Positions 6,483 to 55,542 of a DNA stretch of 59,801 bases are shown here, in pieces. Within the stretch, counting starts at the first letter, position 1. Each line of letters opens with the position of its first letter. Below the pieces are notes generated by a model. It did not search any database. It was not told where the DNA came from and saw nothing but the letters and a program-made list of their open reading frames with translations. The stretch comes from an uncultured Desulfatibacillum sp. (GTDB lineage Bacteria > Desulfobacterota > Desulfobacteria > Desulfobacterales > SpSt-501), in NCBI GenBank assembly GCA_964570965.1, contig CAZNAX010000004.1:1-59801 (forward strand), given 5' to 3'. Both the position numbers and the translations under genes were made by a program.

Positions 6483-6577
6483 TGGACCCGGGAGGGATTG
6501 AACGCACCTCCTCTCGGCATGATGCCGGCGGCTGGGGTGCCATCTTCTTCTTTCGAATCAAGCGGATGAGGGGGTCT

Positions 6578-26030: not shown

Positions 26031-26154
26031 AGCGGATCGCGTCAATCCTGGCTCTTAAATGCCGGTCATTGGGTTGAGCGCGGCCGGGTATGCCTTCGTC
26101 AGCAACACCGTTCGGCAGAAGAGGGCTTCCGCCATCATTCGTGGACAGAAACTC

Positions 26155-30829: not shown

Positions 30830-33800
30830 CGCCCTTCGACCTCATTCGCACCCCCTTGAAGGGGGCCAGCCTCATCGAGGCGGCGGCCGGCACCGGCAAG
30901 ACGTTCACCATCGAGGGACTTTACGTCCGGCTGGTGCTCGAAAAGCAGCTGCCTGTCGAGCAGATCCTCGTGGTGACGTTCACCCGCGCGGCCACCGCCG
31001 AGCTGCGGGATAGGATCTACAAGCGCCTGGCCAAAGCGCGTGACGCTTTTGCCGGAGCCCCCGTCGACGACGACGAGCTCCTGCGACAGCTGGCTGCCGG
31101 CCACGTCAACCCCGTCCAGGCGGGGCGCCTGCTGCGCCAGGCGCTGATGGATTTCGACCGCGCTGCCATTTACACGATCCACGGGTTTTGCCAGCGGGTG
31201 CTATACGAAAACGCGTTCGAGACCGCCAGCGCTTTCAATGCGGAACTGCTCCGGGACCAGACCCCGATCCTGGTCGAAGTGGTGGAGGATTTCTGGCGCC
31301 GGTGGGTTTGCGGCCAAGCGCCGGAGTTCCTGCAATGGGCCCAAGGCACCCTGGGTGACCCGGGCTGCCTGCTGGAACTGGCCTGGAAATCGACCGCGGC
31401 TGAATTCGCGGTGACCCCCCGGCGTGATGAGCCTTGCCTGCGGGCCGCAACGCTTGATGCCTTTCGACAGCGGCGGCAAGAACTCGCGGCATGTTGGCGC
31501 GCCGGCCGCGACGATATCCGCCGCATTCTCATGAATGCGCCGCTGAACGGCGTTCGGTTCGGCAGCCTGACGCCCGGGGAAGGCGGCGGGCCGTCGGGGC
31601 GGGAGCGGGTCGTCCGGGGATTGGTCGATGCCATGGATGCTACCTGCGCGCACGAATCCTCCGATTTCCCGCCGGTGGCCGCGGTCTTGAAGCTAAGCTC
31701 GTCCCATCTTGCCCGCGCGACGCTCCGCCGCCGGCAGGCTCCGTCCCACTCGGTCTTCGACGCCTGCGAGGCGCTTCATCGGGCCGCACAGGCGCTGGCT
31801 CCGGAAATGACCGGGCAGCTGCACTATCTCAAATCGCGCTTGCTCGACGTTGTGCCAGCCGACTTGGAACGGCGCAAGTCCGAAAAGGGGTGGGTGTCCT
31901 TCGACGATCTGCTGCGGCGGCTGGCCCGGACGCTGGACACCGGCAGGGGCGAAGCGCTGGCCGATGCCGTGCGCCGGCGTTATCAGGCCGCACTGGTGGA
32001 CGAGTTCCAGGACACCGACGATCTCCAGTACGCTGTGTTCTCGCGGCTGTTTTCATCGCCGCACCACCTGCTCTTCATGATCGGCGACCCCAAGCAGGCC
32101 ATCTATGGATTTCGCGGGGCGGATATTTTTTCCTACCTACGCGCCGCCCAGGGAGCCGACGCGCGTTTCACCCTCATCCGCAACTGGCGGTCTTCACCCG
32201 GTCTGGTGCAGGCGGTCAACACGCTTTTTTCGCAATCGGCCGCGCCCTTTCTTTTTCCCGGGATCGACTTCGTCCCGGGCCAGGCCGCCCGGGACGAAGC
32301 GACAGCGATGGCGGCGGAGCCTGCGATGATCATCTGGCACTTAGATTCCCGACCGCACCGCGACGACGGCAAAGCCCTGACCAAGCCGCATGCGCAAGCG
32401 CTGATCGCCCGTGCCGTGACCCTGGAAATCCAGCGGCTGACCGCGTCCGGCCCCGCCGCCGTCCGGACCGGCGACATTGCCGTACTGGTGCGGACCAACA
32501 GCCAGGCCGCGTTGATGAAAGCGCATCTCTCTGCGGCCAGGGTCCCTTCGGTCATCTACAGCACGGCCAACGTGTTCGACTCGACCGATGCCCACGAACT
32601 GCTGGCCGTGCTATCCAGCATCGCCGAACCCCAGAGCGCGTCTAAACTGAAAACGGCGCTGGCCACTCATCTGCTGGGCCTTTCCGCCGGCGAAATCGCC
32701 GCCGGAGACCGGGCCGAGGATTCATGGGAGCCGCGCATCCGGAGGCATTGGGAGTATTTCCGCCTGTGGCACGAACGCGGGTTTCCATCCATGTTCCGGC
32801 AATTCCTGTCCGGTGAGGCGGTGAAGCGGCGCCTTCTCTGCCTGCCGGACGGCGAGCGCCGTCTGACCAACCTTCTGCACCTGGCCGAGATTGTCCACCG
32901 TGCCGCCGGTGAGGAAAACCTCGGTCTGGCCGGTCTGGTGACGTGGCTTGCCCGTCACGTCGATCCCCACGCGCAACGCTCCGAGGAAACCCAGCTGCGA
33001 CTGGAAAGCGATGAGCTCGCCGTCAAGATCGTCACCGTCCACCGCAGCAAGGGGCTGGAATATCCGGTGGTGTTTTGCCCGTTCGCCTGGTCCGGTTCCG
33101 CTTTGCGGGGCGGCGATGTCTTTTATCACGATCCCGCGAACGGTAATCGCCTGACGGCCGACATCAGCGGCGATATGGATTCGCCCCACCGGCTCCGCGC
33201 CCAAAACGAGATCCTGGCCGAAAATCTAAGAATGCTCTATGTTGCCGTGACCCGCGGGCGGGAGCGCTGCTATCTCGCCTGGGGCCGGATCAACTCCGCC
33301 GAAACATCGGCGCTGGCCTACCTGTTGCGCTCTGACGCCTCGGCGACGGACGCCGCCCTCGAAAGCGACTGGATCGGGCGGCTGAGGAAAGAATTCAATT
33401 CCATCGGAGACGATGAGGTTCGGAGCCGGCTGGACGATCTCGCCGCCGCCTCGGACGGCGCCATCGTGATCCGCCGGCTGCCGGAGCAGCCGCCATCGAA
33501 AAGCGCGGATGAAGCCCGGGTGTCCCTTCAGCTAGCCTGCCGCGAATTCCGCGGAACGATCGACCGCACTCGGTCCCTGACCAGCTATTCCGCTCTCGCG
33601 GCGGCAGGCCCCGCCGAAACACCGGACCGCGATGGCGGTTACCCGGCGGTGGCCGGCGGAGCCCCGGCGCAGGATTCCCGCCCCGCCGCCGCCGACGCCA
33701 ACGGTATGGCAGATTTCCCGACGGGCGCGCGGGCCGGTACGTTTTTTCACTCTATCTTCGAAACGATCGATTTCACCCGACCGGTTTGCCGGACGGTCGT

Positions 33801-34446
33801 TTCCCGAAAGCTCAGGGAGTTCGGATTCGAGCCGTCCTGGACGGAACCCGTCTGCCGCATGATCGCCGAAGTTCTTGAGGTGCCGCTGTTCGCCGGTGCA
33901 TCTGCGGTGCGCCTGGCCGAGGTGGGCCTCAGCCGGCGGGTCAGCGAGATGGAATTCTACTTCCCGCTGAACCTGGTGACTCCGGCGCTCCTGGAAGAGG
34001 TTTTCGCGCGCTACGGGACACCGCCGGCATTTGAGGAAACGCCGATGGCCGCCGGCATCGAGCCCCTGCACTTCGCGCCGACGCGCGGCTTTATGAAAGG
34101 CTTCATCGACCTGGTATTCGAACACGGCGGGCGGTACTACCTGGTTGACTGGAAATCGAATCGTTTGGGCGCAGCGCCGGAAGCATATCACCGCAACCAA
34201 CTGCGCGCCGTGATGTGCGAGCATCGCTACGACCTGCAGTATCACATCTACACCTTGGCGTTGCACCAGTACCTGCGATGGCGAGTTCGCGGCTACGAGT
34301 ATGCTCGAGACTTCGGCGGGGTATGCTATGTTTTTCTGCGCGGAGTCAGCTGCGATTACGGGCCGGATTACGGGCTTTTCTGCAACCGGCCCGAACCCCG
34401 GCTGGTCCACGCGTTGGGAGAGGCGCTGATACCGGACTATGTCTGA
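30826..34446 (+). CDS. recB: Exodeoxyribonuclease V beta subunit
   Basis: AAAGTGKT, VVTFTRAATAEL, VDEFQDTD, IGDPKQAIY.FRGAD, TVHRSKGLEY, GFIDL..LVDWKSN nuclease; TTG start. Confidence 0.97.
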   Translation: MTPFDLIRTPLKGASLIEAAAGTGKTFTIEGLYVRLVLEKQLPVEQILVVTFTRAATAELRDRIYKRLAKARDAFAGAPVDDDELLRQLAAGHVNPVQAGRLLRQALMDFDRAAIYTIHGFCQRVLYENAFETASAFNAELLRDQTPILVEVVEDFWRRWVCGQAPEFLQWAQGTLGDPGCLLELAWKSTAAEFAVTPRRDEPCLRAATLDAFRQRRQELAACWRAGRDDIRRILMNAPLNGVRFGSLTPGEGGGPSGRERVVRGLVDAMDATCAHESSDFPPVAAVLKLSSSHLARATLRRRQAPSHSVFDACEALHRAAQALAPEMTGQLHYLKSRLLDVVPADLERRKSEKGWVSFDDLLRRLARTLDTGRGEALADAVRRRYQAALVDEFQDTDDLQYAVFSRLFSSPHHLLFMIGDPKQAIYGFRGADIFSYLRAAQGADARFTLIRNWRSSPGLVQAVNTLFSQSAAPFLFPGIDFVPGQAARDEATAMAAEPAMIIWHLDSRPHRDDGKALTKPHAQALIARAVTLEIQRLTASGPAAVRTGDIAVLVRTNSQAALMKAHLSAARVPSVIYSTANVFDSTDAHELLAVLSSIAEPQSASKLKTALATHLLGLSAGEIAAGDRAEDSWEPRIRRHWEYFRLWHERGFPSMFRQFLSGEAVKRRLLCLPDGERRLTNLLHLAEIVHRAAGEENLGLAGLVTWLARHVDPHAQRSEETQLRLESDELAVKIVTVHRSKGLEYPVVFCPFAWSGSALRGGDVFYHDPANGNRLTADISGDMDSPHRLRAQNEILAENLRMLYVAVTRGRERCYLAWGRINSAETSALAYLLRSDASATDAALESDWIGRLRKEFNSIGDDEVRSRLDDLAAASDGAIVIRRLPEQPPSKSADEARVSLQLACREFRGTIDRTRSLTSYSALAAAGPAETPDRDGGYPAVAGGAPAQDSRPAAADANGMADFPTGARAGTFFHSIFETIDFTRPVCRTVVSRKLREFGFEPSWTEPVCRMIAEVLEVPLFAGASAVRLAEVGLSRRVSEMEFYFPLNLVTPALLEEVFARYGTPPAFEETPMAAGIEPLHFAPTRGFMKGFIDLVFEHGGRYYLVDWKSNRLGAAPEAYHRNQLRAVMCEHRYDLQYHIYTLALHQYLRWRVRGYEYARDFGGVCYVFLRGVSCDYGPDYGLFCNRPEPRLVHALGEALIPDYV

Positions 34447-36262
34447 TCGAATCGAGAACAAACTGTTTTCAGCCCTCGACCTGCACTTCGCCAGGTTCAT
34501 CAGCCGCTTCGGCGGAGCAGACACCGAGAGCCTGTACCCGGCAGCGGCGCTGGTCAGCCGCGCTACCGGCAACGGCGACGTCTGCCTGGATCTCCAAGCC
34601 TGGGCGGGAAAACCAGTCGATGGCCTACCGGGGGCGGCGGCGTGCCCGCCCGCGGACCGCTGGGCCTCCGCCCTGGGCACCTGCCCGGCGGTCGGGCGCC
34701 CGGGGGAGCGCCGGCCGCTGGTGCTGGACGAGGGCAACCGCCTCTACCTTTACCGCTACTGGGAATACGAAAACCGCCTGGCCGCCCGCATTCTAGAGCG
34801 CGCCGGCTGCCCGCCGGAGCACCTCGACCCCGCGTGCCTGCAGGCTGCCATCCGGTGTAATTTCGCCGACGGCGGACCGGAGACCGACTGGCAGGTGGTG
34901 GCCGTTGCCGTGGCTCTGCTCAAGCGCTTTGCCGTGATCACCGGCGGGCCGGGAACCGGCAAGACCACGACGGTCGCCAAGATCATCTCCGTGTGGGAGG
35001 ATATACACCAGGGGCGGTCGACCCGCGTGCTGCTGGCCGCGCCCACCGGCAAAGCCGCGGCCAGACTCAAGGAATCCCTGCGGCAGCGTCCGGCGCGGCC
35101 GGTGCGGACAGACGGCTGCGGTCCACTGCCGCCGCACGAGGTTTACACTCTGCATCGCCTTCTCAGGCCCGTGCCCGGCACCCCCCTGTTCCGCCACAAC
35201 GCCGAGAACCCTCTGCCGGTCGACCTGATGATCGTCGACGAAGTCTCCATGGTCGATCTGGCCCTTATGGCCAAGCTGGTGGACGCGCTGCCCGGATCGG
35301 CCCGACTGGTGCTGATCGGTGACAGAGACCAGCTCGCATCGGTGGAGGCCGGTTCGGTGTTGGGAGACATCTGCGGCCGGACGCACCGCCCGGGGTTCTC
35401 ACCTGAGTTCGGGGATTTGATTCGGCGCGTGACCGGTCAGGTCGTCCCCATCCAATCGGACCGCCGTCCGCTGCAGGATAGCATCGTAGAGCTGCAGACC
35501 AGCCATCGGTTTTCCGCCGACAGCGCCATCGGGGCCCTCAGCCGGGCTGTGAACCAGGGCGATGCGCCTGGCACGCTGGCCATTCTGGCGCGGACCGCAG
35601 ACGGAGCCCTCACCTGGCAGGAGCCGCAGCCCGGGCGCAACGGCATGGCCGAGTTGGAACAGCACCTGACGGCAGGCTACGCGGCGTACCGGGCACAGGG
35701 GGACCCCCACCGAATCCTGCAGGAACTCGGCCGGTTCAAGGTGCTCTGCGCCCACCGGGCCGGTTTCAACGGCGTGGAGGCGGTCAACCGGCTGGTGGAG
35801 CGGGTTCTGATGCGTCAGGGGAAAATCCGGATCAACCCGCGCCGCAGCAGCCCCTGGTATTCCGGCCGTCCGATCCTGGTCACCCAGAACGACTACAGTC
35901 TGGGGCTTTTCAACGGAGACATCGGAGTCACCCTGAGCGATTCGGCCGAGATCCCTGAACGTCTGGCCGTCTTTTTCGCGGATGCGGCCGGAGGCCTGCG
36001 CCGCTTCCTGCCGTACCGCCTGCCCGAACACGAAACGGTTTACGCCATGACGGTGCACAAAAGCCAGGGGTCTGAATTCGAAGACGTGCTGCTGATCCTG
36101 CCGGCCGAGGACTCTCCGGTGCTTTCCCGTGAACTATTATACACCGCCCTGACCCGGGCGCGGAAGCGTTTTACACTCTTCGGTCGGCGTGAGGTTCTCA
36201 CGACCGCCATTCACCGCCGCATCGAGCGCACCTCAGGTCTGCGCGAAGCGCTCTGGGGGTAG
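34439..36262 (+). CDS. recD: Exodeoxyribonuclease V alpha subunit
   Basis: GGPGTGKTT, LAAPTGKAAARL, VDEVSMVD, GDRDQLASV, NGDIG, MTVHKSQGSEF. Confidence 0.97.
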   Translation: MSDRIENKLFSALDLHFARFISRFGGADTESLYPAAALVSRATGNGDVCLDLQAWAGKPVDGLPGAAACPPADRWASALGTCPAVGRPGERRPLVLDEGNRLYLYRYWEYENRLAARILERAGCPPEHLDPACLQAAIRCNFADGGPETDWQVVAVAVALLKRFAVITGGPGTGKTTTVAKIISVWEDIHQGRSTRVLLAAPTGKAAARLKESLRQRPARPVRTDGCGPLPPHEVYTLHRLLRPVPGTPLFRHNAENPLPVDLMIVDEVSMVDLALMAKLVDALPGSARLVLIGDRDQLASVEAGSVLGDICGRTHRPGFSPEFGDLIRRVTGQVVPIQSDRRPLQDSIVELQTSHRFSADSAIGALSRAVNQGDAPGTLAILARTADGALTWQEPQPGRNGMAELEQHLTAGYAAYRAQGDPHRILQELGRFKVLCAHRAGFNGVEAVNRLVERVLMRQGKIRINPRRSSPWYSGRPILVTQNDYSLGLFNGDIGVTLSDSAEIPERLAVFFADAAGGLRRFLPYRLPEHETVYAMTVHKSQGSEFEDVLLILPAEDSPVLSRELLYTALTRARKRFTLFGRREVLTTAIHRRIERTSGLREALWG

Positions 36263-36409
36263 CTGCGGCCGGCGACCCTCGATCGGCGCTTCCAAGACGA
36301 AAAACTTCGCTGCTCCAAGAGCGGCTTGCGGCGGCCATATTTACCCGCTGCGCCGGGTGTGCTATTTTTGAACCAGCGATGGGCCATCGATGCATACAAG
36401 GAAACCAGA

Positions 36410-36925
36410 ATGATGAACGCTGGCATTAGAACAGGCATCGGGTTTGATTTCCACCGGCTGGTTGCGGGCCGCTCGCTCGTTCTGGGCGGAGTCCCGATTC
36501 CCTATGAAAAGGGACTCTTGGGTCATTCCGATGCGGATGTGTTGGTCCATGCCATTTGCGACGCCCTGCTCGGGGCCGGTGGTCTGGACGACATCGGCAT
36601 TCACTTCCCGGACAGCGATCCTGCCTACCAGGGGATTTCCAGCCTGGAGCTTCTAAGAAGGACCTGCACGCTCATCGCCGCCGACGGATTCCGGATCGTC
36701 AACGTAGATGCCGTCGTGCTGGCCGAAGCGCCCCAGATCATGCCGTTTCGCCGCGAGATATCGAGCCGGATTCTTCAGGCCATGCAGATCGCTGCCCCGC
36801 AGGCTTTCAATCTCAAGGCCACAACCACCGAAGGCTGCGGAATGATCGGGCGCGGAGAGGGAATCGGCGCCATGGCCACCGCGTTGATCGAACGCCGGCG
36901 GGCGGATCGGCACGGGGGGGCATGA
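36410..36925 (+). CDS. ispF: 2-C-methyl-D-erythritol 2,4-cyclodiphosphate synthase
   Basis: GIGFDFH, GHSDADV..HA..DALLGA, DIG.HFP, KATTTEG. Confidence 0.96.
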
Positions 36926-38916
36926 GCGCTTTTCAGCTGAAGTCCGCGTTCGAGCCGGCCGGCGACCAACCGTCCGCCATCGAAGCGCTCTACCGGCACC
37001 TGGCCGCCGGCCGAAAGCACAGCGTTCTTTTAGGGGTCACCGGCTCCGGCAAGACCTTCACGATGGCGCAGGTCATCGCACGGATCAACCGCCCGACGCT
37101 CGTGATTGCACCGAACAAGACCCTGGCGGCCCAGCTCTACAGCGAATTCCGCCTGCTGTTCCCCGATAATGCGGTCGAATATTTCGTCAGCTACTACGAC
37201 TACTACCAACCGGAGGCCTACATCCCGACTTCGGACACTTACATCGCCAAGGATTCCTCCATCAACGACATGATCGACAAGCTGCGGCACTCCGCCACGC
37301 GCTCCGTCCTATCGCGCCGCGATGTGCTGGTGGTGGCGAGCGTTTCCTGTATTTACGGTCTCGGCGCTCCGGAAGACTACCTGTCCATGCGGGTGGAGAT
37401 CGAGGCCGGTGCCGAGTTCAGCCGAGAACAGCTGCTGGCTGATCTCGTCGCCATGCATTATGAACGCAAAGATCATGATTTCTTTCGGGGAACCTTCCGG
37501 GTGCGGGGAGACCGCGTCGAAATTTTTCCAGCCTACGAAGAAGACCGGGCCGTCCGGGTGGATTTTTTCGGCGACACGGTGGAGGGCGTCGCCGAGATCG
37601 ATGCCCTGCGCAACACGGTCCTGCGTCGACTCCAGCGCGGCGTCATTTTTCCGGCCAGCCACTACGTCACCCAGAAGACCACCCAGCAAAAGGCCATGCA
37701 GACCATCCGCACCGAGCTGAGCCGCCGCATTGATTTTTTTCGCGACCAAGGCAAGCTGCTGGAGGCGCAGCGGATCGAGGAGCGCACGCATTTCGACCTG
37801 GAGATGATTCAAGAGTTGGGCTATTGCAACGGCATCGAAAACTACTCCAGACACTTGACCGGCCGCCGGGCGGGGGAGCCGCCGCCGACCCTGCTCGATT
37901 ACTTTCCGAGGGATTTTCTGCTGTTCATCGACGAGAGCCACATCGCCGTGCCCCAGCTCCGGGGGATGTACCGCGGGGATCGCTCGCGCAAGGAAACTCT
38001 GGTGGCGTACGGCTTCCGTCTGCCGTCGGCCCTGGACAACCGGCCGCTGATGTTCGAAGAGTCGCAGTCCCGCTTCAACCAGGTGGTCTACGTTTCCGCC
38101 ACCCCGGCGGAGCATGAGATGCGCCGATCGGGGGATGCCGTCGTCGAGCTCATCGTGCGGCCGACGGGACTGGTCGACCCCGTGATGGAGGTCCGCAGCG
38201 CACGCCACCAGGTCGACGACCTGCACGATGAAATCCGCATCCGGCAACAGCGCCGCGAGCGCGTGCTGGTGACCACCCTCACCAAGCGCATGGCGGAAGA
38301 CCTTACCGAATACTATGCGGACCTCGGGCTCAAGGTCCGCTACCTGCATTCGGACATCACCACCCTGGAGCGCATGGACATCATCCGGGATCTGCGGCTG
38401 GGACACTTTGACGTCCTGGTGGGCATCAACCTGCTGCGCGAAGGCCTCGACATCCCCGAAGTGTCCCTGGTGGCCATTCTGGACGCAGACAAAGAGGGAT
38501 TCCTGCGATCGACCCGGTCGCTCATTCAGACCTGCGGCCGCGCGGCGCGCAATGCCAACGGGCTGGTCATTCTCTACGCCGACAGGGTCACCCCCTCGAT
38601 GCAGCAGACCATCGACGAAACCAACCGCCGCCGCCAGATTCAACATGCTTACAATCAGGCCCACGGCATCACGCCCACATCGGTGCACAAGGCGATCGCC
38701 GGGGCCTTCGATTTCGCCGCCGGACCGCTGGCGCCGACGGCCGGCCGGGTCGGCGAAGAACCTGCTGTCTATGATTCCCTGGACGAGGTCGACGCCGAGA
38801 TCCGCCGGCTCGAAAACCAGATGCATCAGGCGGCCAAGGAGCTGGATTTCGAACGGGCGGCCGAGCTGCGGGACCGCATCCTGGGCTTGCAGCGGCTGAT
38901 CGTTCTGGAGACATGA
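36922..38916 (+). CDS. uvrB: Excinuclease ABC subunit B
   Basis: [63 protein letters not shown] domain. Confidence 0.98.
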
Positions 38917-40778
38917 ACGCGCCTTCGCAACCGCCGCCGCCCGCCGCCCCTGCCCAGAAGGCGGCCGCCGCCCCCTTGGAACCCGGTGTCTACCTGATGA
39001 AGGCGGCCGACGGCCGAATCTTGTATGTCGGCAAGGCGCGCAGTCTTCGCAAGCGCTTGTCGGCCTATTTCAAAACAAGCACTCATTCCGGCTCCAAGAT
39101 CCATGCGCTGGTGGCGCGGATCGCCGACATCGAGATCATCCTGACCCGCACCGAAAAAGAAGCTCTCATCCTCGAGTCCAACCTCATCAAGCGCCACCGG
39201 CCCCGCTTCAACGTGGTCCTCAAGGACGACAAGCGCTACCCCTCCCTGCGGCTGGATCCGAAAGAAGCCTATGCCCGCTTCAGCGTCGTGCGGAAGATCG
39301 GCGGGGATGAGGCGCTTTATTTCGGACCATTCGCCTCCGCGCAGGCCGTGCGCGCAACCCTCAAGGTGCTCAACCGAACCTTCAAACTGCGCAAGTGCAA
39401 GGCGAACGAATTCCGCACCCGCACCCGGCCCTGCCTGCACTGTCAGATGAACGGCTGTCTGGCGCCCTGCTGTCGGGATGTCGCCCCCGAGGTCTATCGT
39501 GAACACGTTCAGGAGGCGGTTCTCTTCCTGAAGGGACGCACCCAGGAGCTGCTGGGAAAGATTCGCGGGGATATGGAGGCGGCTGCCGCTGCTCAGGAAT
39601 ATGAAAAGGCGGCGCGGCTGAGGGACAAGCTGTTTGCGTTGCAGCGGACTACCGAGAAACAGGTTGCGGTGACCACCGACTTTATGGACCGGGACGTCTT
39701 CGCGGCGGCTTCCGCCGATGGCGCCGCCGTGATCACCTATCTGGAGGTTCGCGGCGGCTTTTTGACAGGCTCCCGCCACTTCGGCTTTCCCGAGAGCATG
39801 GCTGCCGAAGATGAGATGCTGGGCGTTTTCATCCGCCAGTTTTACGAGGACCGTGCGCTGGTGCCGGGGGAGCTTTTCGTGTCGCATGCGCTCGATGACC
39901 AGGAGTGGATCGAGCAATGGTTGACCGCACAGAAAGGCAAGCGGGTGCAGATTCACCGGCCGGAGCGCGGCGAAAAGGCACGCTTGCTGGAGATGGCCTT
40001 GAACAACGCCCGCACGGAACTCGACGCTCTGCTGTCCCGACGCTCCAGCGGGGCCGCGCTGTTGTTGCGGCTGCAACGTCGTCTGGAGCTCTTGCGCTGT
40101 CCGCAGCGCATCGAATGTGTCGACAACTCGACCCTCATGGGATCAGACCCCGTGGCCGGCCTCGTGGTGTTTGTGGACGGCCGGCCGGAACCGGCCGCCT
40201 ACCGCCGATACCGGATCACCGGCGTGGCCGTGCCGGATGATTATGCGTCCATGTCGGAGATTCTAAGGCGCCGACTGGGAAAGGGGCCGGCATCCGAGCC
40301 GTTTCCCGACCTGTTGATGGTGGACGGCGGCAAGGGGCAACTCGGCACGGCCATGGCGGTCATGAAGGATTTGCAAATCGAAGGGCGCATGGATGTCATC
40401 GGGATCGCCAAAAAGGACTCGGAGCGGGGGGAGGTGCAAGACAAAATTTTCCTCCCCGGACGGTCGAATCCGGTAAATTTCGGCCGCGAGGGCGATCTGC
40501 TGCTTTTTCTCCAGCGCATACGGGACGAAGCGCACCGCCACGCCGTTGCCTTCCATCGACGACGGCATCGGGCGACCGTCCTGACATCGGCGCTGGACGC
40601 GATCCCCGGCGTCGGCAAGGTGCGCAAAGCCCAGCTGATCGATCATTTCGGCAGCTTTGAAGCGATCCGGGCAGCACCGCTCGCTGAACTGAGCGCGCTG
40701 CCCGGTTTCAATCGGAAACTGGCCGAAGCGGTGAAGGCTGTACTTGGCTCGGACCTTGACGGCCGGAACGCAACGTGA
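38913..40778 (+). CDS. uvrC: Excinuclease ABC subunit C
   Basis: PGVYLM..YVGKA GIY-YIG, four-Cys cluster, [28 protein letters not shown], HhH. Confidence 0.97.
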
Positions 40779-42052: not shown

Positions 42053-42661
42053 ATGGCTGTCGTAAATCTCAAGAAGCACCAGATCGAGTGCAAGATCGTC
42101 TACTATGGTCCGGCGCGGTGCGGCAAGACCACCAACCTGGAATATATCCATCGGACCTTCTCCCAGCATGTCCGGGGGCAAATGATCTCCATTGATACCG
42201 AGGGGGATCGGACCTTGTTTTTCGATTTCTTGCCGCTGGAACTTGGAAAGGTCAAAGGGTGCGATGTGCGCGTGCAGCTTTACACCGTGCCGGGACAGGT
42301 CCGGTACGCCTCCACCCGCAAGCTGGTCCTCCGCGGGGCGGACGGAGTGGTTTTCGTTGCCGACTCGCTTGAGGTGCGGCGTGAACAGAATATGTTGGCG
42401 TTGAAGGACCTTCAACAGAATCTGCGGGACTACCATCTGAGCATTTTTAAACTCCCATTGGTGATGCAGTTCAACAAACGCGATTTGGCCGAAGCCGATA
42501 TCCCGCTGATGCCGATCGAGCAGATGGCCCACGAGTTGAACCGCCAGCTGAAAGCGCCTGCTCTGCCGGCGGCGGCCCTGAACGGGAAGGGGGTCGGCAA
42601 GACACTGCAGGAATGCCTTCGGCTCGTGCTGCGCAAGCTTCAGCAGGAGTTGAATTTTTGA
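42053..42661 (+). CDS. mglA: MglA-family small GTPase
   Basis: KIVYYGPARCGKTTNL, DRTLFFDFLPL, QLYTVPGQV, GADGVVFVADS, QFNKRD. Confidence 0.9.
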   Translation: MAVVNLKKHQIECKIVYYGPARCGKTTNLEYIHRTFSQHVRGQMISIDTEGDRTLFFDFLPLELGKVKGCDVRVQLYTVPGQVRYASTRKLVLRGADGVVFVADSLEVRREQNMLALKDLQQNLRDYHLSIFKLPLVMQFNKRDLAEADIPLMPIEQMAHELNRQLKAPALPAAALNGKGVGKTLQECLRLVLRKLQQELNF

Positions 42662-42715
42662 ACGCCTCGGATCCCCCCGCCAACAAGGGCGTGAGCCCGC
42701 CTGCGTGCGAACTTT

Positions 42716-43909
42716 ATGGCGTCTGATTTCGATTTTTCCGGAAAGCTGAGCTTCCTGAACCTCGGCGAGCTGCTGCAACTGCTCGGCAGCAGCTCCGCCA
42801 CCGGCACCCTGCGGGTCTACAGTCCCTTCCGGGCGGAAGCCGGCCGGGTCGTTTTCGAAAACGGAAACCCCGTCGATGCAACGGACGGGGCCCAGTCCGG
42901 TGCGGCGGCTCTTTTCACCCTTTTCGGCTGGATGGAGGGACGATTCGAATTTACTCGGGAGAGGGTGGCGTGTAAGCGAACCATCCAAAAGGGCCGGATG
43001 GAGCTCATTTTAGACGGCCTGCGCCTGCTCGATGAAGGCAAGATCGCCAAGCTCGGACCGGCGCCTTCGACGGCAGCCTCCAGCCAAGTGGAAGCCCCGG
43101 TATCCGCCGGCCGCTCATCGGACATGCCCCCGATCATCAAGGGGCCCTTGGTCGACTACGCCTACGTCATCGACGAGGAGAGCTTTTACGACGGGGATGA
43201 AATCGTGCACGAGGGCGCCCACGGGAACTGGATCTGGGTGATCCTGGAAGGGGCCGCCGAAATCATCAAAACCACACCGAAGGGCCCGCTTAAGCTGCTG
43301 CGGGTGGGCGATGGCGCTTTTCTCGGCAGCGTGGCGTCTCTGCTCATCGGCGACAATGTCCGCAGCACCACCGTCGTCGCCTGCGGAAACGTTCAGCTGG
43401 GCATGCTGGACTCCCAGCTGCTGGCCGGTGAGCTGGCCAATCTTTCGGCGGATTTCAAAAGTCTGATCAAGAGCCTGGACAACCGTCTGAGGTGCGTGAC
43501 CGGGATCGGCGCCGACGCCCATGCGCGCACCACGACCTTCATGGATCTAATCAAGGGAAAAAAAATGGCCCTCAAGGAAGGCCAGCATGAGGAGCGGCTG
43601 TTCCGGATTCGCAACGGCGAAGTGATCGTCGCCCGCAGCCTGGGTGCTGGTCATGTCCCGCTGGCCCAGCTCCAGAAAGGCGATTTTTTCGGGCATATCC
43701 CGTTTCTGACGATCGGCCATGAGCCTTTCGCAGCGGCCGTGTTTTCCTCCCCCGACCTTAAATTGGCGGCGGTGGACTCACAGAAGATAACCGCCGAATA
43801 CAAACAGCTGTCGGCTACCCTGCGCAACATCATCGAGTACCTGGCCGCTTGCATCTCGGCGACAACCTTGGTAACTATCAATCGGGTCAGCCGGTCCGGC
43901 ATCCGGTAA
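42716..43909 (+). CDS. DUF4388 (PatA_N) domain plus two cNMP-binding-like domains
   Basis: FSGKL..L.LGELLQLL..TG.L..GRV.F..G.PVDA..L..W.EG.FEF; EG..G.W.WVILEG..FLG..RSTTV; second GDFFG domain. Confidence 0.85.
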   Translation: MASDFDFSGKLSFLNLGELLQLLGSSSATGTLRVYSPFRAEAGRVVFENGNPVDATDGAQSGAAALFTLFGWMEGRFEFTRERVACKRTIQKGRMELILDGLRLLDEGKIAKLGPAPSTAASSQVEAPVSAGRSSDMPPIIKGPLVDYAYVIDEESFYDGDEIVHEGAHGNWIWVILEGAAEIIKTTPKGPLKLLRVGDGAFLGSVASLLIGDNVRSTTVVACGNVQLGMLDSQLLAGELANLSADFKSLIKSLDNRLRCVTGIGADAHARTTTFMDLIKGKKMALKEGQHEERLFRIRNGEVIVARSLGAGHVPLAQLQKGDFFGHIPFLTIGHEPFAAAVFSSPDLKLAAVDSQKITAEYKQLSATLRNIIEYLAACISATTLVTINRVSRSGIR

Positions 43910-43943
43910 TCGGTCTGCGACCTTTGAGGAGCGCCCTAAACCA

Positions 43944-44288
43944 ATGAAGAACGAAGAAAAGCGCAAACATCAACGCTTCAGTTCGCTTAACCTCTCCTAT
44001 GTTTGCCTGGACGAGGACCAAAAAGCGGTGAAACAGGGCATGGGACGTACGTTGAACCTCTCTGAATCCGGGATTTTGCTGGAAACGCATTTCCCGATCG
44101 CAGAGGCCCATCACGTCATTCTCAGCATCGGCCTCGGCGATGACCTGGTAGATCTCCGGGGGCGGCCGGTGCATGTGCACGATGCGGGGCAGGGGACCTA
44201 TGAAATCGGGATCGAGTTCGTCGAACCCGACGAAAAAGCGCTGCGCGCCGTGAGGCAATTCGTTCAATCCCTCTCGCGGGAGGAATAG
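43944..44288 (+). CDS. Single-domain PilZ protein
   Basis: RKHQR (RxxxR) and NLSESG (D/NxSxxG), IGIEF. Confidence 0.9.
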
Positions 44289-44340
44289 CCGGCCTCTGCG
44301 GCGGAGCGGTGTCGTTCCAACTTCAGGAAGGGTGCGCGTG

Positions 44341-45237
44341 ATGAATCCAGTGATCAGCCGAACGGATTTCCCTGATCTGAAACTTTTGAAGCGCGGCAAA
44401 GTGCGGGACATGTATGATCTGGGCGAACACCTGCTGATGGTGGCGACCGATCGGATTTCCGCCTTCGATGTCGTCATGCACGAGCCGATCCCGGACAAAG
44501 GCATCATCCTGACTCAAATTTCGCTTTTCTGGTTCGAGATGATGCGGTCGACCGTTGCTAATCACGTCGTCGCCAGCGATGTGGACGAATACCCCAAGAT
44601 CTGCCGGCCTTACGCCGCTTCGCTAAAGGGCCGAAGCCTGCTGGTCAAGAAAGCCGTTCCGCTGCCCATTGAGTGCGTGGCCCGCGGGTATATTTCCGGC
44701 TCCGGCTGGAGCTCCTACCTGCAGTCCGGCGAGGTCTGCGGCATCCGCCTGCCGAGGGGATTAAAGGAATCCGACCGGCTGGCGGAGCCCATCTTCACCC
44801 CGGCCACCAAGGAGGAAGCCGGGATGCACGACATCAACGTCGATTTTGAGGAGGCACGCAAGCGCATCGGTTCGGAGTTGTCCGCGCGCGTGCGCGATTT
44901 GACCCTGACGCTTTACCGGAGAGGCGCTGCTTTTGCCGAAACGAAGGGGATCATTATCGCCGACACCAAATTCGAATTCGGCCTCGTCGGTGATGAGCTC
45001 ATCCTCATCGACGAGCTGCTGACCCCGGACTCATCCCGCTTCTGGCCGGAGGCTTCCTATCAACCGGGCGGCCCGCAACAAAGCTACGACAAACAGTACA
45101 TGCGCGATTACCTGATATCCACCCGCTGGAATAAAACTCCGCCGCCTCCGACCCTGCCGGAGGAGGTCATCCGCAACACCCGCCTCAAATACCTCGAAGC
45201 GCTCAGACAGCTGAGCGGCAGCAGCCATGGCCTCTGA
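44341..45237 (+). CDS. purC: Phosphoribosylaminoimidazole-succinocarboxamide synthase
   Basis: [57 protein letters not shown]. Confidence 0.97.
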
Positions 45238-46237
45238 GTGTCTCGGATCGGATGGAGAAGGCTCCCGCATCGTCCCATTGACGGATATCGACTCTGAAGA
45301 TGAGCGTTTCCGAATCACCACCCTCCGCGAAAGCGCTGGTTTGCAGAAATCCATCCACCGGTTTGGACTGTGCCCGCCGCCGCTGGTTGCACCGGATGAC
45401 GGCGGCTTTATCATCGTAAGCGGCTTTCGGCGGGTGAACGCCTGTCAGGCGCTGGGATGGAATTCGATCCCTGTGCGGCTTCTCCGATCGGCATCCGGCT
45501 ATGAGCTTGCCCTAAAAGCCGTTGCCGAAAATTCACTGGAACGACCGCTGAATCTCATCGAAACCTCCCGAGCCTTGAACCTGCTCGAGCAGGCCGCTGG
45601 CGACGGTCGACTCGCCGATGCGGACGCCTTGGCCCTCGGGCTCCCGACCCACCGGGGCGTGACGTCGCAGTTGAAGCGCCTCTGCCGGATGCCGGTCGAG
45701 GTTCAGGGCGGCGTCCTGGAGGGGGCGCTTTCCTTTGCCATGGCCTGTGAGCTCGGTTGCATGGAAGAGGGGCTCGCGACCGCCTTTGCCCGTCTGTTTC
45801 GCCGGCTCAAGCCTAGTCTGAACAAACAGCGGGAAATCGTAAGCCGGGTCGCGGAGATCGCCGTTCGGGAGAGAATCGATCCGCGGCAGGTCCTGGACGA
45901 ATGCGGGTTGATGCATACAACCGGACCCGCGGACCCGGAGCGCAACCAGCAGATTCATGCCATCCGCCGACGGCTGCGACAACGCCGCTATCCGGCGGTT
46001 GCGGCCGCGGAGGACAACTTCCTTGCCTTGCGGCAGCGGTTGAAGCTGGGTGAAATGATTCAACTGGCACCGCCCAGGGATTTCGAGGGAGCGGGCTTCA
46101 CCCTGACGCTGAACTTTCAGACTATCGCAGACGTTGCGCACCTGCGCGCCAAGCTGGATGAACTGATCGACCACCCGGACTTCAATCGTCTGCTGACCGG
46201 AAAGGGCAGGGGGTTCGAGGAGTCGTCGGGTTCATGA
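45227..46237 (+). CDS. Orphan ParB/Spo0J-family protein
   Basis: [51 protein letters not shown]; no parA nearby. Confidence 0.8.
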
Positions 46238-47337
46238 AAATCGCCGAGCTCTACGTCGATGCCGCGCTATCCGAACGGCCTGAAGTCGAGGCGGCCCGCC
46301 GCCGGTTCAAGGTGCCGGCCCGCATCGTGCGGAGCGCGGAGGAGGTTTATGCGGCCGTCGCCGCGGCGCAAGACCCCATCGGACACGGCAAACGCGTGCT
46401 CTATCTCACCCGCAACCGGGGCGCCTTCGTCAAGTCCTGCCCCGGCACGCGCCACTACACGTGCTGCGGGTATAAGATCCTGCATATCGGAACCTTCTGC
46501 AGCATGGACTGTTCCTATTGCATCCTGCAGGCGTATTTTCACCCGCCGGTTCTGCAATATTTTCTGAACCATGACGAGATGGACCAGGAGTTGGAACGTC
46601 TCTTCGCCACCCGAACGATCCACCGGCTGGGAACCGGCGAATTCACCGACAGCCTGATCTGGGAGCCCTGGACCGATCTCTCGGCGAGACTGATCCGCAA
46701 ATTTGCCGGTCAGGACAGCTGCGTCCTGGAGCTGAAGACCAAGACCACGGAGATCGACTCGCTGCTGGATCTGCCGCATCGACGTCGAACGATCCTGGCA
46801 TGGTCCCTGAACACCGCTGAGGTCATTCGGACCGAAGAACGGGGGACGACTTCGCTCGATGCACGCCTGAAAGCAGCTGCCCGCGGCGCCGCGCACGGCT
46901 ATCCCCTGGCGTTCCATTTCGATCCGATCGTCATCGCCGACGGCTGCGAGGCGGATTATCGCCGAACCGTCGAGCGTCTGTTCGCCGCCGTCGATCCGCG
47001 CCACATCGTTTGGATCAGCCTGGGAGCCCTGCGCTTCATGCCGGAACTCAAGGCCGTCCTTCGAAAGCGGTTTCAGCACTCACGGATCGTCTACGGCGAG
47101 TTTATCGGCGGCCTGGACGGAAAAATGCGCTACTTCAAGCCGCTGCGCATGAAGGTCTACCGAGACATCGCGGCCGCCATCCGTGCACGGGCGCCTTCGG
47201 TCTGCATCTATCTGTGCATGGAAGACGACGAGGTGTGGCAGCATGCGCTGGGGTTCCAGCCTGACTCCGGCGGCGGGCTGGCCCGCATGCTGGACGAGGC
47301 GGCGGCTCGGCAGTGCCATATGAATCCGGCCGGCTGA
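46234..47337 (+). CDS. Spore photoproduct lyase-like radical SAM enzyme
   Basis: CSMDCSYC, LKTK, WSLN..VI..EE.GT.SL..RL.AA..GYPL.F..DPI. Confidence 0.85.
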   Translation: MKIAELYVDAALSERPEVEAARRRFKVPARIVRSAEEVYAAVAAAQDPIGHGKRVLYLTRNRGAFVKSCPGTRHYTCCGYKILHIGTFCSMDCSYCILQAYFHPPVLQYFLNHDEMDQELERLFATRTIHRLGTGEFTDSLIWEPWTDLSARLIRKFAGQDSCVLELKTKTTEIDSLLDLPHRRRTILAWSLNTAEVIRTEERGTTSLDARLKAAARGAAHGYPLAFHFDPIVIADGCEADYRRTVERLFAAVDPRHIVWISLGALRFMPELKAVLRKRFQHSRIVYGEFIGGLDGKMRYFKPLRMKVYRDIAAAIRARAPSVCIYLCMEDDEVWQHALGFQPDSGGGLARMLDEAAARQCHMNPAG

Positions 47338-47346: not shown

Positions 47347-48018
47347 ATGACACGGTTCTGCCGAGAGCGCTTGCTGCATTCGGTTGGCTGGGTTCTGCTG
47401 GTGCTTCTGGGGCTCGCATTCGGGCCTGCTCCGCCGGCGGCGGCCGAAACTGTCCGCGTCAAACGTATCAACGACGGCGACACGGTGCAGTTGGCGGATG
47501 GACGGTTGCTGCGCTACATCGGTATCAACGCACCGGAAATCGACCATGCGCGGCACACGGCCCAACCGTGGGGCTTTGAAGCGCGCACGCAAAATGCCGA
47601 GCTGGTCGCAGGGCAATCGGTGCGGCTGGAATTTGATCTCGAGCGGCTGGACGACTACGGCCGGACCCTGGCTTACGTCTTTCTGTCGGACGGCACGATG
47701 GTCAACGAAAAGCTGCTGCGGTCGGGCGTGGCATTCTGCCTGTTCATGCTGCCGAACATCAAATACGAAAGCCGGCTGCTGGCGGCGCAGCGTGCTGCCA
47801 TGCGGGAGCGGCGGGGCCTGTGGCAGAACTGGCGCGAAGGAGAAGGCCGGTATGTCGGCAACCGCAATTCCCGGCGGTTCCATCTGGCAAGCTGCCCGGA
47901 AGCCAAGCGTATGGCTGCTCGAAACCGCGTGATGTTTTCGAGCCGCTGGGACGCCTTCTGGGCCGGCTACTCCCCCTCCCGTGAATGCCAAGCGGACTTT
48001 TTCATTCCTTCCGATTAA
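47347..48018 (+). CDS. Secreted thermonuclease (SNase) with C-terminal Ada-like metal-binding domain
   Basis: Signal peptide AAA|E, DGDT, RYIGINAPE, DDYGRTLAYV, YVGNRNSRRFH..SC..GY.P..EC. Confidence 0.9.
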   Translation: MTRFCRERLLHSVGWVLLVLLGLAFGPAPPAAAETVRVKRINDGDTVQLADGRLLRYIGINAPEIDHARHTAQPWGFEARTQNAELVAGQSVRLEFDLERLDDYGRTLAYVFLSDGTMVNEKLLRSGVAFCLFMLPNIKYESRLLAAQRAAMRERRGLWQNWREGEGRYVGNRNSRRFHLASCPEAKRMAARNRVMFSSRWDAFWAGYSPSRECQADFFIPSD

Positions 48019-53845: not shown

Positions 53846-54091
53846 TCAGTCCGCATCCGTTGCATGGTTTTCGGTCGGAAAAGGCTTCTCGACAGATCGC
53901 CCGGCGCTGTCCTGCATCAATAGGGTGATCCTGCGTTCGGTCTCTTCCAGCTTCCGCGAACAGAACCGTGAAAGCTCCATTCCTTCCTCAAACTTCTTGA
54001 TGGCCTGTTCCAGAGGCAGCTCGCCGGACTCGAGCTCAGTCACGATCTGCTCCAGTTGCTTGATGGATTGTTCAAACGTTTTTTTCGCCAT
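53846..54091 (-). CDS. xseB: Exodeoxyribonuclease VII small subunit
   Basis: TFEQSI..LE.IV..LESG.LPLE.AI..FEEG..L. Confidence 0.96.
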   Translation of the reverse strand: MAKKTFEQSIKQLEQIVTELESGELPLEQAIKKFEEGMELSRFCSRKLEETERRITLLMQDSAGRSVEKPFPTENHATDAD

Positions 54092-55487
54092 GAGTGGATT
54101 TCCCCTTTATGTCGCATAACAAGACCCCGCCGGCCAGCAAGACTTCAACATTCTCGTGAATAGATACCTGCTCGGGGTGCGTGATGACGTGCTTTTCCAG
54201 AAGGGTGCGCGTAATGCTGTATCCCCGATCGAGAATCGCCAGGGGATTCAAAGCCTCCAGTTTGATCGTGCGCTCGCGTAGCATTGATTTTTTATTTGAA
54301 ATTACTATAGACAATAATTTTGATAAGTTATTAATATTTAGTTGAAGTTTAGAATGATACTTTTGAACCTGTAATCGGGGTGAAGCAGCGTCGAAGCGAT
54401 GGGAAAGCCAATTCAACCGATCGCCCGAGTGCTGAATCCGCAGCGCCAGCGATCGTTCGAGGCGCGCCCCCAGATCGTCGAGTCTGAGCCATGCCTCCTG
54501 AATTTTTTTTCTTGGATCTTGGAGTCTTAGGTTTAATTGTTTTAAGCTTTGGTTTAGTTTTTCAAGATGCTTCAAAAAGCTGCGATGCAAGGCCTTGTCG
54601 AGCTCGCTAACCTGGCGAAGCAAGGCATTTTTTTCAGGCGCAACCAACTCCGCGGCTGCGGACGGCGTCGGTGCCCGCAGATCCGCAATGAAATCCGCTA
54701 TGGTCACATCGGTTTCATGACCGACGGCCGAAACGACCGGGATTTCGGAATGAAAGATGGCCATGGCCACGGTTTCCGAATTGAACGCCTGCAGATCCTC
54801 GATCGAACCGCCGCCACGGGCCAGGATGATCACATCCGAGTCTGCGCGCTGGTTGACGAGGGTCAAGGCTGCTATGATTTCAGCTTCGGCCCGCGGACCT
54901 TGGACACTGACCGGAACAATTTCGATGCGGAGGTTGGCAAATCGCCGGTTCAGAACGGTGATGATGTCGTGCACCACAGCCCCGGACGGAGATGTGATGA
55001 CGCTGATCTTCGAGGGCATAAAAGGCAGCGGCTTTTTGTGCCGCGGGTCGAAATAACCTTCGGCAGCCAGTCGTCGCTTGAGTGTTTCAAAAGCAAGCTG
55101 CAGGGCACCCAGGCCGGCCGGCTCCAGGTATTCGAGGATCACCTGGTAATTGCCCCTCGGCTCATACACGCTGAGCCGGCCCAGTCCGATGATGCTCATG
55201 CCGTCGGCAACGGTGAAGCGGGCCTGGCGGTATTGCGCGCGAAAGACGACGGCCGCAATTTGCGCGTTTTCGTCCTTAAGAGTGAAATAGCAATGCCCGG
55301 AAGCAGGCATCCGAAAATTGGAAACTTCACCACAAATCCAGACGAAAGGAAAACTGGCCTCCAGAACCGATTTGATCTTGGCTGTTAGCTCCGAAACGGA
55401 ATAAATGGTCTTGGCGGCCTGATTCTGCGCAGGGGCCGCTGGACCCTCGAGCGCTCCAAAATCAAATGGTTTTTCCGGGGGGGTCAT
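54072..55487 (-). CDS. xseA: Exodeoxyribonuclease VII large subunit
   Basis: GEVSNF, SGHCYFTLKD, RGGGSIEDL.AFN, SAVGHETD.TIAD, APTPSAAAE, L.RGYSI. Confidence 0.97.
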   Translation of the reverse strand: MTPPEKPFDFGALEGPAAPAQNQAAKTIYSVSELTAKIKSVLEASFPFVWICGEVSNFRMPASGHCYFTLKDENAQIAAVVFRAQYRQARFTVADGMSIIGLGRLSVYEPRGNYQVILEYLEPAGLGALQLAFETLKRRLAAEGYFDPRHKKPLPFMPSKISVITSPSGAVVHDIITVLNRRFANLRIEIVPVSVQGPRAEAEIIAALTLVNQRADSDVIILARGGGSIEDLQAFNSETVAMAIFHSEIPVVSAVGHETDVTIADFIADLRAPTPSAAAELVAPEKNALLRQVSELDKALHRSFLKHLEKLNQSLKQLNLRLQDPRKKIQEAWLRLDDLGARLERSLALRIQHSGDRLNWLSHRFDAASPRLQVQKYHSKLQLNINNLSKLLSIVISNKKSMLRERTIKLEALNPLAILDRGYSITRTLLEKHVITHPEQVSIHENVEVLLAGGVLLCDIKGKSTHGEKNV

Positions 55488-55514: not shown

Positions 55515-55542
55515 ATGTCTGATAAGTTATATTATGTAAACT
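55515..55542 (+). other. dif: Chromosomal dif site (XerCD recombination site)
   Basis: ATGTCTGATAA-GTTATA-TTATGTAAACT: 11-6-11 layout; right arm equals the B. subtilis XerD arm as recalled; intergenic; KOPS converge. Confidence 0.85.

Follow-up and report, generated by a model that had tools for sequence, protein, structure and literature searches.

A ParB/Noc-like protein and a radical SAM enzyme of the spore photoproduct lyase fold as a probable two-part system in Desulfobacterales and other bacteria

ParB-family proteins are switches dependent on cytidine triphosphate (CTP), known for chromosome segregation, nucleoid occlusion, transcription and as a cytoskeletal adaptor. In PadC, KorB and VirB the ParB N-domain serves outside chromosome segregation and is tied to partner recruitment, the known partners not being enzymes; PadC works with ParA and bactofilin, KorB with KorA and in transcription. 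VirB has a role in H-NS antisilencing (PMC10770331). In spore photoproduct lyase (SPL, SplB), roles have been assigned to Cys140, Tyr98 and Arg304/Tyr305, and a Cys140/Tyr98 relay is implicated in closing the catalytic cycle; in Clostridium SPLs an alternative hydrogen-donor cysteine occupies the position of Ser76 of the Geobacillus enzyme (PMC3467042). Here we analyse a locus where relatives of both families are encoded side by side. In a stretch of 59,801 nucleotides of contig CAZNAX010000004.1 (the window), a gene for a ParB/Noc-like protein of 336 amino acids (45227..46237) is followed by a gene for a radical S-adenosylmethionine (SAM) enzyme of the SPL fold with 367 amino acids (46234..47337; Pfam SPL 83.6 bits). 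The stop codon of the former and the start codon of the latter share the ATGA at 46234..46237; the parts of these two genes and the two genes flanking them, located below, are likewise on the forward strand.

The host is a Desulfobacterales bacterium, and the nearest relative of the SPL-like protein (88% identity) comes from a metagenome-assembled genome. The initial annotation had read the same two open reading frames (ORFs) and their overlap from the DNA, as we did, and had suggested that a ParB clamp may load the enzyme onto DNA for a lesion other than spore photoproduct or for base modification, possibly in the terminus region. We conclude that the pair is probably a real, previously undescribed two-part system. 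The explanation of the whole that we favour, with modest confidence, is a two-component unit in which a divergent Noc/ParB protein and an SPL-fold enzyme are coupled through a helical segment of the former, called module X here, the enzyme probably acting on a nucleic acid. Functional coupling of ParB-like protein or module X with the SPL-like enzyme is the part we hold with good confidence; DNA-directed delivery of the enzyme is put forward tentatively.

Fusion and adjacency of the two partners

Past the helix-turn-helix (HTH) region, the model of the ParB-like protein shows four helices (residues ~195-270) and then a small beta-beta-alpha-alpha domain. The helical part, module X, is basic, ~75 amino acids long (45809..46036) and carries the motif LNKQRE..EI..RE....L..RRYP. 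The small alpha/beta C-terminal subdomain that follows (residues ~271-325, 46037..46201, delimited by the secondary structure of the model) has the motif PPxDFEG...HP and possibly serves dimerisation.

Module X was found fused to the enzyme in other lineages. With a profile, 1.84 billion representatives were searched exhaustively; of the best 150 SPL-like relatives (50% identity clusters), 20 had N-terminal extensions, usually of ~100-130 amino acids. A hidden Markov model (HMM) of the C-terminal half of the ParB-like family matched 18 of the 20 extensions with E values of 4e-11 to 5e-5, always just before the SPL domain, and the extensions show the motif (L/G).NK..E..RL..EI..RE....L..RR(Y/F)P. 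When profiles built from the extensions only and from Desulfobacterales ParB-like proteins only were compared, hhalign aligned them with 98.9% probability (E 2.7e-17) over 74 columns at residues 193-266. The protein P0257 (705 amino acids) even consists of a complete distant ParB-like protein, a linker of ~40 residues and an SPL-like enzyme, and is 28% identical to the ParB-like protein of the window over residues 18-313 (E 5e-22). Directly downstream of the ParB-X-SPL fusion gene, at 6029-7081 of locus L244, lies a gene for a ParA/Soj-type ATPase (AAA_31, 183.8 bits; weak N-terminal HTH_17), the sole case of a ParA-like gene accompanying a ParB-like/X-SPL system.

Unfused relatives gave a similar picture. 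The contexts of eight such SPL-like genes from other lineages were studied, and a ParB-like or HTH-X gene was located immediately upstream in four. A full ParB-like gene lies directly upstream of the SPL-like gene in L252/L255 (83 and 82 bits with the N- and C-terminal HMMs), and on the contig of P0247 a gene for 327 amino acids with a weak ParB_N match overlaps the SPL-like gene by 4 nucleotides from upstream. In L249 a 219-amino-acid protein composed of HTH, X and C-terminal domain, lacking the ParB N-domain, is encoded 8 nucleotides upstream (E 1e-22), and in L254 a partial ParB-like C-terminus overlaps the SPL-like gene. A homology search with an 84-amino-acid X profile, for which the word index is weak, returned only 4 proteins among 359 candidates; these are split or stand-alone X proteins adjoining SPL-like genes. 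In L243 a split or stand-alone X is located 9 nucleotides upstream of the SPL-like gene. These contexts outside Desulfobacterales were devoid of purC, of the staphylococcal-nuclease-like (SNase) gene and of fusA, with a glycosyltransferase or aldo-keto reductase (AKR) gene instead, so the association of ParB-like protein or X with the SPL-like enzyme is the only one that crosses lineages. The fusions, and a close adjacency that recurs in unrelated genomic settings, together make a functional coupling very likely. A metagenome scan of the glycosyltransferase-context lineage for conservation of the pair returned the same sequence only, on a longer contig.

The distribution of the genes also contains findings that weigh against this reading. 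The survey anchored on the SPL-like gene covered 80 species-representative genomes, nearly all of them Desulfobacterales, and yielded 72 loci with enough upstream DNA. The ParB-like gene was directly upstream in 23 of these and 0.2-4.9 kb off in 15, so that it was adjacent or within 5 kb in 38 of 72, and the flank contained none in 34. The survey anchored on the ParB-like gene comprised 78 loci and was run with a 9-sequence alignment; an 18-sequence alignment was too diverse for search patterns, and a single-sequence search reached 3 loci only, since the family diverges fast. Here the SPL-like gene was next downstream in 17/66, lay behind intervening genes in 23/66 and was missing from the flank in 26/66. 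Genes inserted between the two are of the TetR-family or cytidylate-kinase-like type. The invariant neighbour of the ParB-like gene is purC, immediately upstream in 69/72 loci, and in several genomes (e.g. JAUWOS01, JAUCGG01, JAJSZO01) the ParB-like and SPL-like genes are unlinked, on separate contigs or ~7 kb apart. In other lineages the full fusion P0257 is a singleton on one 7.3-kb metagenome contig, and fused X is absent from 130 of the 150 representatives, eight of which were sampled for context. Among the remaining unfused contexts, all on short contigs, one is unknown and three have no X upstream.

The same counts would suit an explanation by synteny only, by which the ParB-like protein would be tied to the purC operon as a paralogue of Noc-like or regulatory kind, the SPL-like enzyme would be an independent housekeeping enzyme of an SNase/fusA block and the ATGA an accident of compaction where two conserved blocks meet. 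Besides the constancy of purC, it accounts for the fact that SPL-like, SNase and fusA genes stay grouped in most Desulfobacterales loci, for the junction that in most loci is broken by the insertions mentioned or spans blocks lying apart, and for the tight packing of all four genes of the window array. What it leaves unexplained is the ParB-like module fused to the SPL-like enzyme in 20 of 150 representatives, as well as ParB-like or HTH-X genes translationally coupled to SPL-like genes with no purC, SNase or fusA gene nearby. We dropped a mere synteny junction as main explanation once the X-SPL fusions were found, and synteny only is now considered quite improbable. purC and SNase, tried as members of the unit, were rejected, as neither accompanies the pair outside Desulfobacterales; SNase, which follows the SPL-like gene in most Desulfobacterales loci and does not in other lineages, is probably no part of the unit.

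No recurrent substitute partner was detected downstream of the ParB-like gene in loci where the SPL-like gene is absent, and no other X-coding ORF was present in Desulfobacterales loci near SPL-like genes that lack an adjacent ParB-like gene. Together with unlinked copies in the same genomes, the lack of another X nearby is consistent with action of the two-component unit in trans. Conservation of the two genes as a pair, a point raised by the initial annotation, holds in part: adjacency is limited to about a quarter to a third of Desulfobacterales loci, and fusions and tight adjacency occur elsewhere. Translational coupling, which it had emphasised, is not needed, as the genes are often non-adjacent in Desulfobacterales and sometimes on different contigs.

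A further architecture was found in Elusimicrobia, where a PNP_UDP_1 nucleosidase, X and the SPL-like enzyme form one protein (at least 23 contigs, with NCBI accessions). In the fusions P0343 and P0361/P0392 (L245/L246 5001-7007) the PNP_UDP_1 domain is divergent, with weak DeoD, AMP-nucleosidase, MTAN and HpnG-like matches. In three unrelated contexts the unit has an AKR gene beside it (L242 4091-5017, L243 4094-5017, L245 6962-7909, L246 7013-7909, L255 6143-7123), and the flanking AKRs are mutually 34-36% identical. AKR and PNP genes were found neither in the window nor in 161 Desulfobacterales loci. The PNP_UDP_1 fusion suggests disposal of 5'-deoxyadenosine or an adenosylation-type chemistry.

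These associations could instead indicate a small-molecule pathway and in this respect count against a DNA-directed unit. Such a pathway is the main rival: the substrate of the SPL-like enzyme would be a metabolite of nucleoside, sugar or lipid type, and the reaction possibly a radical adenosylation, for which HpnH/HpnG and MqnE/MqnB are precedents. The fused nucleosidase and the neighbouring AKR would then be enzymes of this pathway, and the ParB-like protein or X would be a scaffold or regulator instead of a DNA loader. The recurrent nucleosidase fusion with its weak HpnG-like match would fit this, as would flanking AKRs of one subfamily in unrelated contexts and the glycosyltransferase upstream in another lineage. 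The partner, however, has the N-domain and HTH architecture of Noc/ParB, and the enzyme has the whole SPL fold and has kept the lesion-phosphate residues R267 and K297. Moreover, PNP and AKR are equally explicable as 5'-deoxyadenosine disposal and are missing from the window and the Desulfobacterales loci. Altogether, we judge a small-molecule pathway unlikely and prefer the X-coupled unit with a nucleic-acid target.

Divergence of the two proteins from SPL and from Noc/ParB

The model of the SPL-like enzyme superposes on Geobacillus SPL (4rh0/4fhc) over ~349 columns with TM scores of 0.71/0.76 (Foldseek E 2e-19), and the second-best fold is 14 orders of magnitude weaker. As reference for true SPL, 80 Bacillaceae splB genes were fetched and 40 were aligned against a profile of 116 diverse SPL-like relatives; hhalign matched the SPL-like profile to the Bacillaceae SPLs with 100% probability (E 1.3e-39) over 316 columns. 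N- and C-terminal segments of the SPL-like protein, searched as sequence or profile against the PDB, did not reach SPL, and local hhalign alignment with Bacillaceae splB did succeed. Like SplB (TIGR04070; 4fhc/4fhd), the enzyme thus has the full-length fold, and alignment to SPL locates the CxxxCxxC radical SAM cluster motif at C89-x3-C93-x2-C96 (46498..46521), with Tyr96 of the Geobacillus enzyme kept as Y95. The SAM ligands K174, S195 and R273 are retained as K170 (116/116 SPL-like representatives), S191 (110/116) and R267 (116/116), and the lesion-phosphate residue Lys309 as K297 (114/116).

Residues that define repair of spore photoproduct (SP) are replaced, unlike in SplB. The position of the hydrogen-atom donor Cys140 (Cys141 in B. 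subtilis), assigned with HMMER and hhalign, is taken by Glu136 (codon at 46639..46641) within an invariant GTGEFTDS motif; it is Glu in 113 of the 116 SPL-like representatives and Cys in all 40 true SPLs. At the Tyr98 position the window enzyme has I97, and the family has mostly Ile, Phe or Val (I 58, F 33, Y 11, V 10 of 116). The hairpin (strands 290-292 and 298-300) is 6 residues shorter, with a tip of G-x-D-G-K in place of Arg304/Tyr305, the alignment of this loop being uncertain. Cys140, Tyr98 and the Arg304/Tyr305 hairpin features are invariant across the 40 true SPLs.

The subfamily has in turn gained conserved residues that SplB lacks, namely the cysteines C69 (115/116), C77 (95/116), C78 (116/116) and C328 (115/116) and an invariant H228-F-D-P motif. 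The subfamily occurs in non-sporulating anaerobes and, unlike SplB, goes with module X or ParB-like proteins. Three of the cysteines belong to a subfamily-specific motif, CPGTxxYxCC (46438..46467), which hhalign maps to the Ser76 loop of Geobacillus SPL: Ser76 aligns to S68, C69 is one residue on, and C77/C78 fall within a 7-residue insertion. In this respect the enzyme resembles the clostridial SPLs, mimicked by 4rh0 (C140A/S76C), which likewise have no Cys at 140 and a conserved Cys in the Ser76 loop. It differs from them by the invariant Glu at 140 where they have Ala, by the loss of Tyr98, which is strictly conserved in Clostridium, and by the loop insertion with its two additional conserved cysteines. 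Three extra conserved cysteines might be an alternative set of hydrogen donors or ligands of a second metal site.

Against the SP lyase equivalog TIGR04070 the enzyme scored 100.7 bits (cut-off 400), and against TIGR03886 (lyase_spl_fam) 33.5 bits (cut-off 437.55). The subfamily profile collected 691 representatives (50% identity) at E<=1e-30, and Geobacillus SPL scored 85.7 bits with it, about E 1e-19 after scaling to library size. Classified by sequence, the enzyme belongs to a large subfamily of its own and is no SP lyase equivalog. None of the PADLOC defence models was matched by the SPL-like protein, P0257 or P0361.

A plain SP lyase orthologue, independent of the ParB-like protein and repairing SP that forms in dry or A-form DNA of a non-sporulating host, would explain the full-length fold and the conserved SAM and phosphate ligands, and relatives indeed bear the names 'spore photoproduct lyase' or 'DNA photolyase' in their sources. 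It fails on the equivalog score, on Cys140 replaced by Glu, on the position of Tyr98, which is Tyr in 11 of 116, and on the shortened hairpin with its changed tip. The host lineage, moreover, is anaerobic Desulfobacterales, and the window had no sporulation genes among the ORFs annotated (~36 of the largest across it). True SPL shows no X association; the ORFs of the 80 Bacillaceae splB genes encode 341-397 amino acids. An SP lyase orthologue therefore is very improbable, and the view of the initial annotation that the enzyme is SPL-like and no true SP lyase stands, as does its statement that sporulation genes are missing from the window.

The ParB-like protein consists of the N-domain, the HTH domain, module X and the small C-terminal domain. 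Its family of proteins of ~336 amino acids was, in the searches made, essentially confined to Desulfobacterales. Curated models are matched below their cut-offs: Pfam ParB_N with 24.3 bits (just below the cut-off of 26.3), TIGR00180 with 38.4 bits (58.45) and the Noc model TIGR04285 with 36.7 bits (315). PADLOC defence models gave a 13-bit match at chance level. Against Noc and chromosomal ParB, the AlphaFold model (pLDDT 88) aligns across ~200 columns that take in the HTH domain (Foldseek E 2e-8), and Noc, ParB, PadC (6ryk), sulfiredoxin and KorB (8qa8/8qa9) are among the structural matches. The family profile aligned with Noc in the PDB at E 3e-16 over positions 6-235, and with Noc/ParB chains overall at E 3e-16 to 1e-10. 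The ParB/Srx-type N-domain covers residues ~11-125 (45257..45601) by the family alignments and the profile comparison with Noc. The HTH or DNA-binding-domain region, placed by Foldseek and by profile alignment to Noc (7nfu/7ol9) and H. pylori Spo0J (4umk), covers residues ~126-194 (45602..45808), including the motif LRLLKLPxEVQ....HARAL.

Within the N-domain, R29 (the Arg of the QPR motif), G66, R68 and R69 (box II, GFRR) and N102/R106 (box III) are invariant or nearly so among 44 members of the family and correspond to the motifs of Noc. The 'EN..R..L' box is at residues 100-112, so that the reading of a ParB-type protein with N-domain, this box and an HTH region is borne out by structure and profile. 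The protein is like Noc and chromosomal ParB (7nfu, 7ol9, 7bnk, 6sdk, 6t1f) in the N-domain followed by HTH and in the conserved residues of box II (Arg-Arg) and box III (N/R), and we regard it as descended from this family and liken its mode of action to it. It differs in the C-terminal half, in having a radical SAM enzyme as genomic partner, and in the lack of parA or a detected parS-like site in the window. The residues for catalysis are missing as well: Gln52 and Glu93 of M. xanthus ParB are catalytic for CTP hydrolysis, and a role is given to R95 as well (bioRxiv 10.1101/2021.05.05.442810). The position of Glu93 is Phe67 in the ParB-like protein (Phe in at least 90% of family members), and that of Gln52 is R/T/S/A/E/I/V/F in the family, never Gln.

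Several of these points speak against a canonical CTP-dependent clamp. Absence of both hydrolysis residues makes a CTP-cycling clamp doubtful; by analogy the protein may bind CTP, and canonical ParB-like cycling is unlikely. Canonical parS was not present in the window within 3 mismatches (a loading site could be elsewhere in the genome), and no conserved palindromic loading site recurred around the ParB-like gene in 105 loci. The top palindrome candidate, seen in 7 loci, falls inside the purC coding sequence, is probably a codon artefact and was rejected. X-only fusions and the L249 protein have no ParB N-domain, and P0257 has lost box III. Several lineages thus do without the N-domain or have a degenerate one, and the clamp aspect of the two-component unit may therefore be peripheral. 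Of the earlier idea that a ParB clamp loads the enzyme, the functional link is retained, while the conserved partner element proves to be the C-terminal helical module and not the CTP-binding clamp domain.

Module X and the C-terminal subdomain belong to no Pfam family. PadC, KorB and VirB do not carry module X. ParB-like proteins from other lineages have the C-terminal subdomain too (by HMM positions in L249, L252, L244 and L254), and the X-SPL fusions do not. Searched as a profile against the PDB, module X gave nothing significant, the best matches being the Gogy protein (E 0.066) and the ribbon-helix-helix protein ORF56 (E 0.29). Its role, with neither a significant structural match nor a Pfam family, is a guess, which also counts against the X-coupled unit. 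The non-significant ORF56 match comes from the first half of X (residues ~195-235; window 45809-45931) and is at most a weak lead. The first helix of X (LNKQRE) aligns to the LNVKQTE helix that closes the DNA-binding domain of Noc. By sequence, module X may be derived from the ParB DNA-binding domain or be an extension of it.

Genes and sites around the pair

The window is ordinary chromosomal DNA. Genes annotated in it include prpD, type II secretion/type IV pilus genes, guaA, recC-recB-recD, uvrB-uvrC and mdh, and further those for an MglA-like GTPase, a DUF4388/cyclic-nucleotide-binding protein, a PilZ protein and an EF-G paralogue, as well as dxs, ispA, xseA and glmM. The pair is located in a dense same-strand array from purC through SNase, so close packing is not peculiar to it. 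purC (SAICAR synthetase, 44332..45237; Pfam SAICAR_synt 244.9 bits, NF010568 411.9 bits) overlaps the start of the ParB-like gene by 11 nucleotides at its 3' end, and the gene for the secreted SNase protein (47347..48018; Pfam SNase 81 bits) begins 9 nucleotides past the end of the SPL-like gene. Promoter- or terminator-like signals above shuffled background were not found within the array of purC, ParB-like, SPL-like and SNase genes. The SNase-type protein has a signal-peptide-like N-terminal segment and a Cys-containing C-terminal tail, and it matched the PADLOC candidate model 'SNc+LTD' with 61 bits.

Ahead of purC, at 42053-44288, lie the genes for the MglA-like small GTPase, the DUF4388/double cyclic-nucleotide-binding protein and the PilZ protein, and in many Desulfobacterales loci this block is conserved there; it looks like a polarity or cyclic di-GMP signalling module. 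The linkage of purC to the ParB-like gene (loci L084-L161) holds even where this upstream block is replaced, and other lineages have a GT2 glycosyltransferase in purC's place. The window is rich in repair and recombination genes (26059-40778; 54072-55487). Upstream of the pair, at a distance of 5-19 kb, are recC, recB, recD, uvrB and uvrC; xseA, from the same set, lies downstream of it. Between recC and recB, a 385-amino-acid ORF (29400-30557) overlaps the recC end by 4 nucleotides and has a weak FliK-like (Flg_hook) match only.

With respect to the replicon, the initial annotation had noted the absence of parA and a dif site about 8-10 kb from the pair. The deviant Walker A motif of ParA-type proteins (KGGxGK[ST]) was indeed not found when all frames of the window were searched. 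A candidate dif-like 28-mer, ATGTCTGATAAGTTATATTATGTAAACT, occupies 55515-55542 in an AT-rich intergenic region beside xseA; its distance from the pair is 8.2-10.3 kb. It has 7 mismatches to B. subtilis dif, with the right arm (TTATGTAAACT) exact. Neither xerC nor xerD was among the annotated ORFs of the window.

Proposed working of the pair and its meaning

The homologies, the gained and lost motifs, the fusions and the neighbourhoods described above are observed; in the mechanism that we propose for the two-component unit, nucleotide binding, DNA binding, physical contact between X and the enzyme, the substrate and the use of SAM are all inferred. The ParB N-domain probably binds a nucleotide, by analogy CTP, and probably does so without efficient hydrolysis. 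The ParB-like protein would be placed on DNA by its HTH domain, possibly gated through nucleotide binding, and module X would couple it to the enzyme by recruiting, positioning or activating the SPL-like protein. In the lineage of the window X would act in trans from the ParB-like protein, and in others in cis, being fused to the N-terminus of the enzyme.

The SPL-like enzyme would then use a 5'-deoxyadenosyl radical derived from SAM on a nucleic-acid target other than SP. Because the Cys140/Tyr98 relay of SPL is absent, SAM is probably consumed stoichiometrically, as a co-substrate, and the fused PNP-type domain and the recurrent AKRs could dispose of 5'-deoxyadenosine and 5-deoxyribose. The target is probably DNA, since X is carried here by a DNA-binding protein of the Noc/ParB type. 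Circumstantially, the phosphate-binding residues kept from SPL, the HTH domain of the partner and the repair genes nearby point the same way; the latter are recCBD and uvrBC in the window, AddAB-like and YbaB genes upstream of the X-SPL-like genes in L242/L243 and an SSB gene following in L247. In its most specific form, a ParB/Noc nucleotide switch that sits or slides on DNA would deliver the SPL-fold enzyme through X for repair or modification of a base or lesion other than SP, with an auxiliary metal site at C69/C78/C328 as a possible feature. This form of the proposal we regard as doubtful.

Full-text literature searches that combined ParB with radical SAM or SPL found no paper, and in the literature searched the association of the ParB-like protein or X with the SPL-like enzyme, like module X itself, is undescribed. 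Members of the SPL-like subfamily routinely carry the label 'spore photoproduct lyase' or 'DNA photolyase' in spite of lacking the residues that define SP repair; as the subfamily is large, many genomes are probably misannotated for this enzyme. The fusions turn guilt by adjacency into a concrete interaction, that of X with the enzyme, and the X-SPL proteins represent a minimal system that is likely to be more tractable in biochemistry than the pair of proteins. An enzyme-partnered ParB-like protein would be an added functional class among the ParB-family CTP switches. If the most specific form of the proposal is true, this would be the first ParB that delivers an enzyme, and the unit would represent a new oxygen-sensitive pathway of DNA repair or modification in at least three bacterial phyla.

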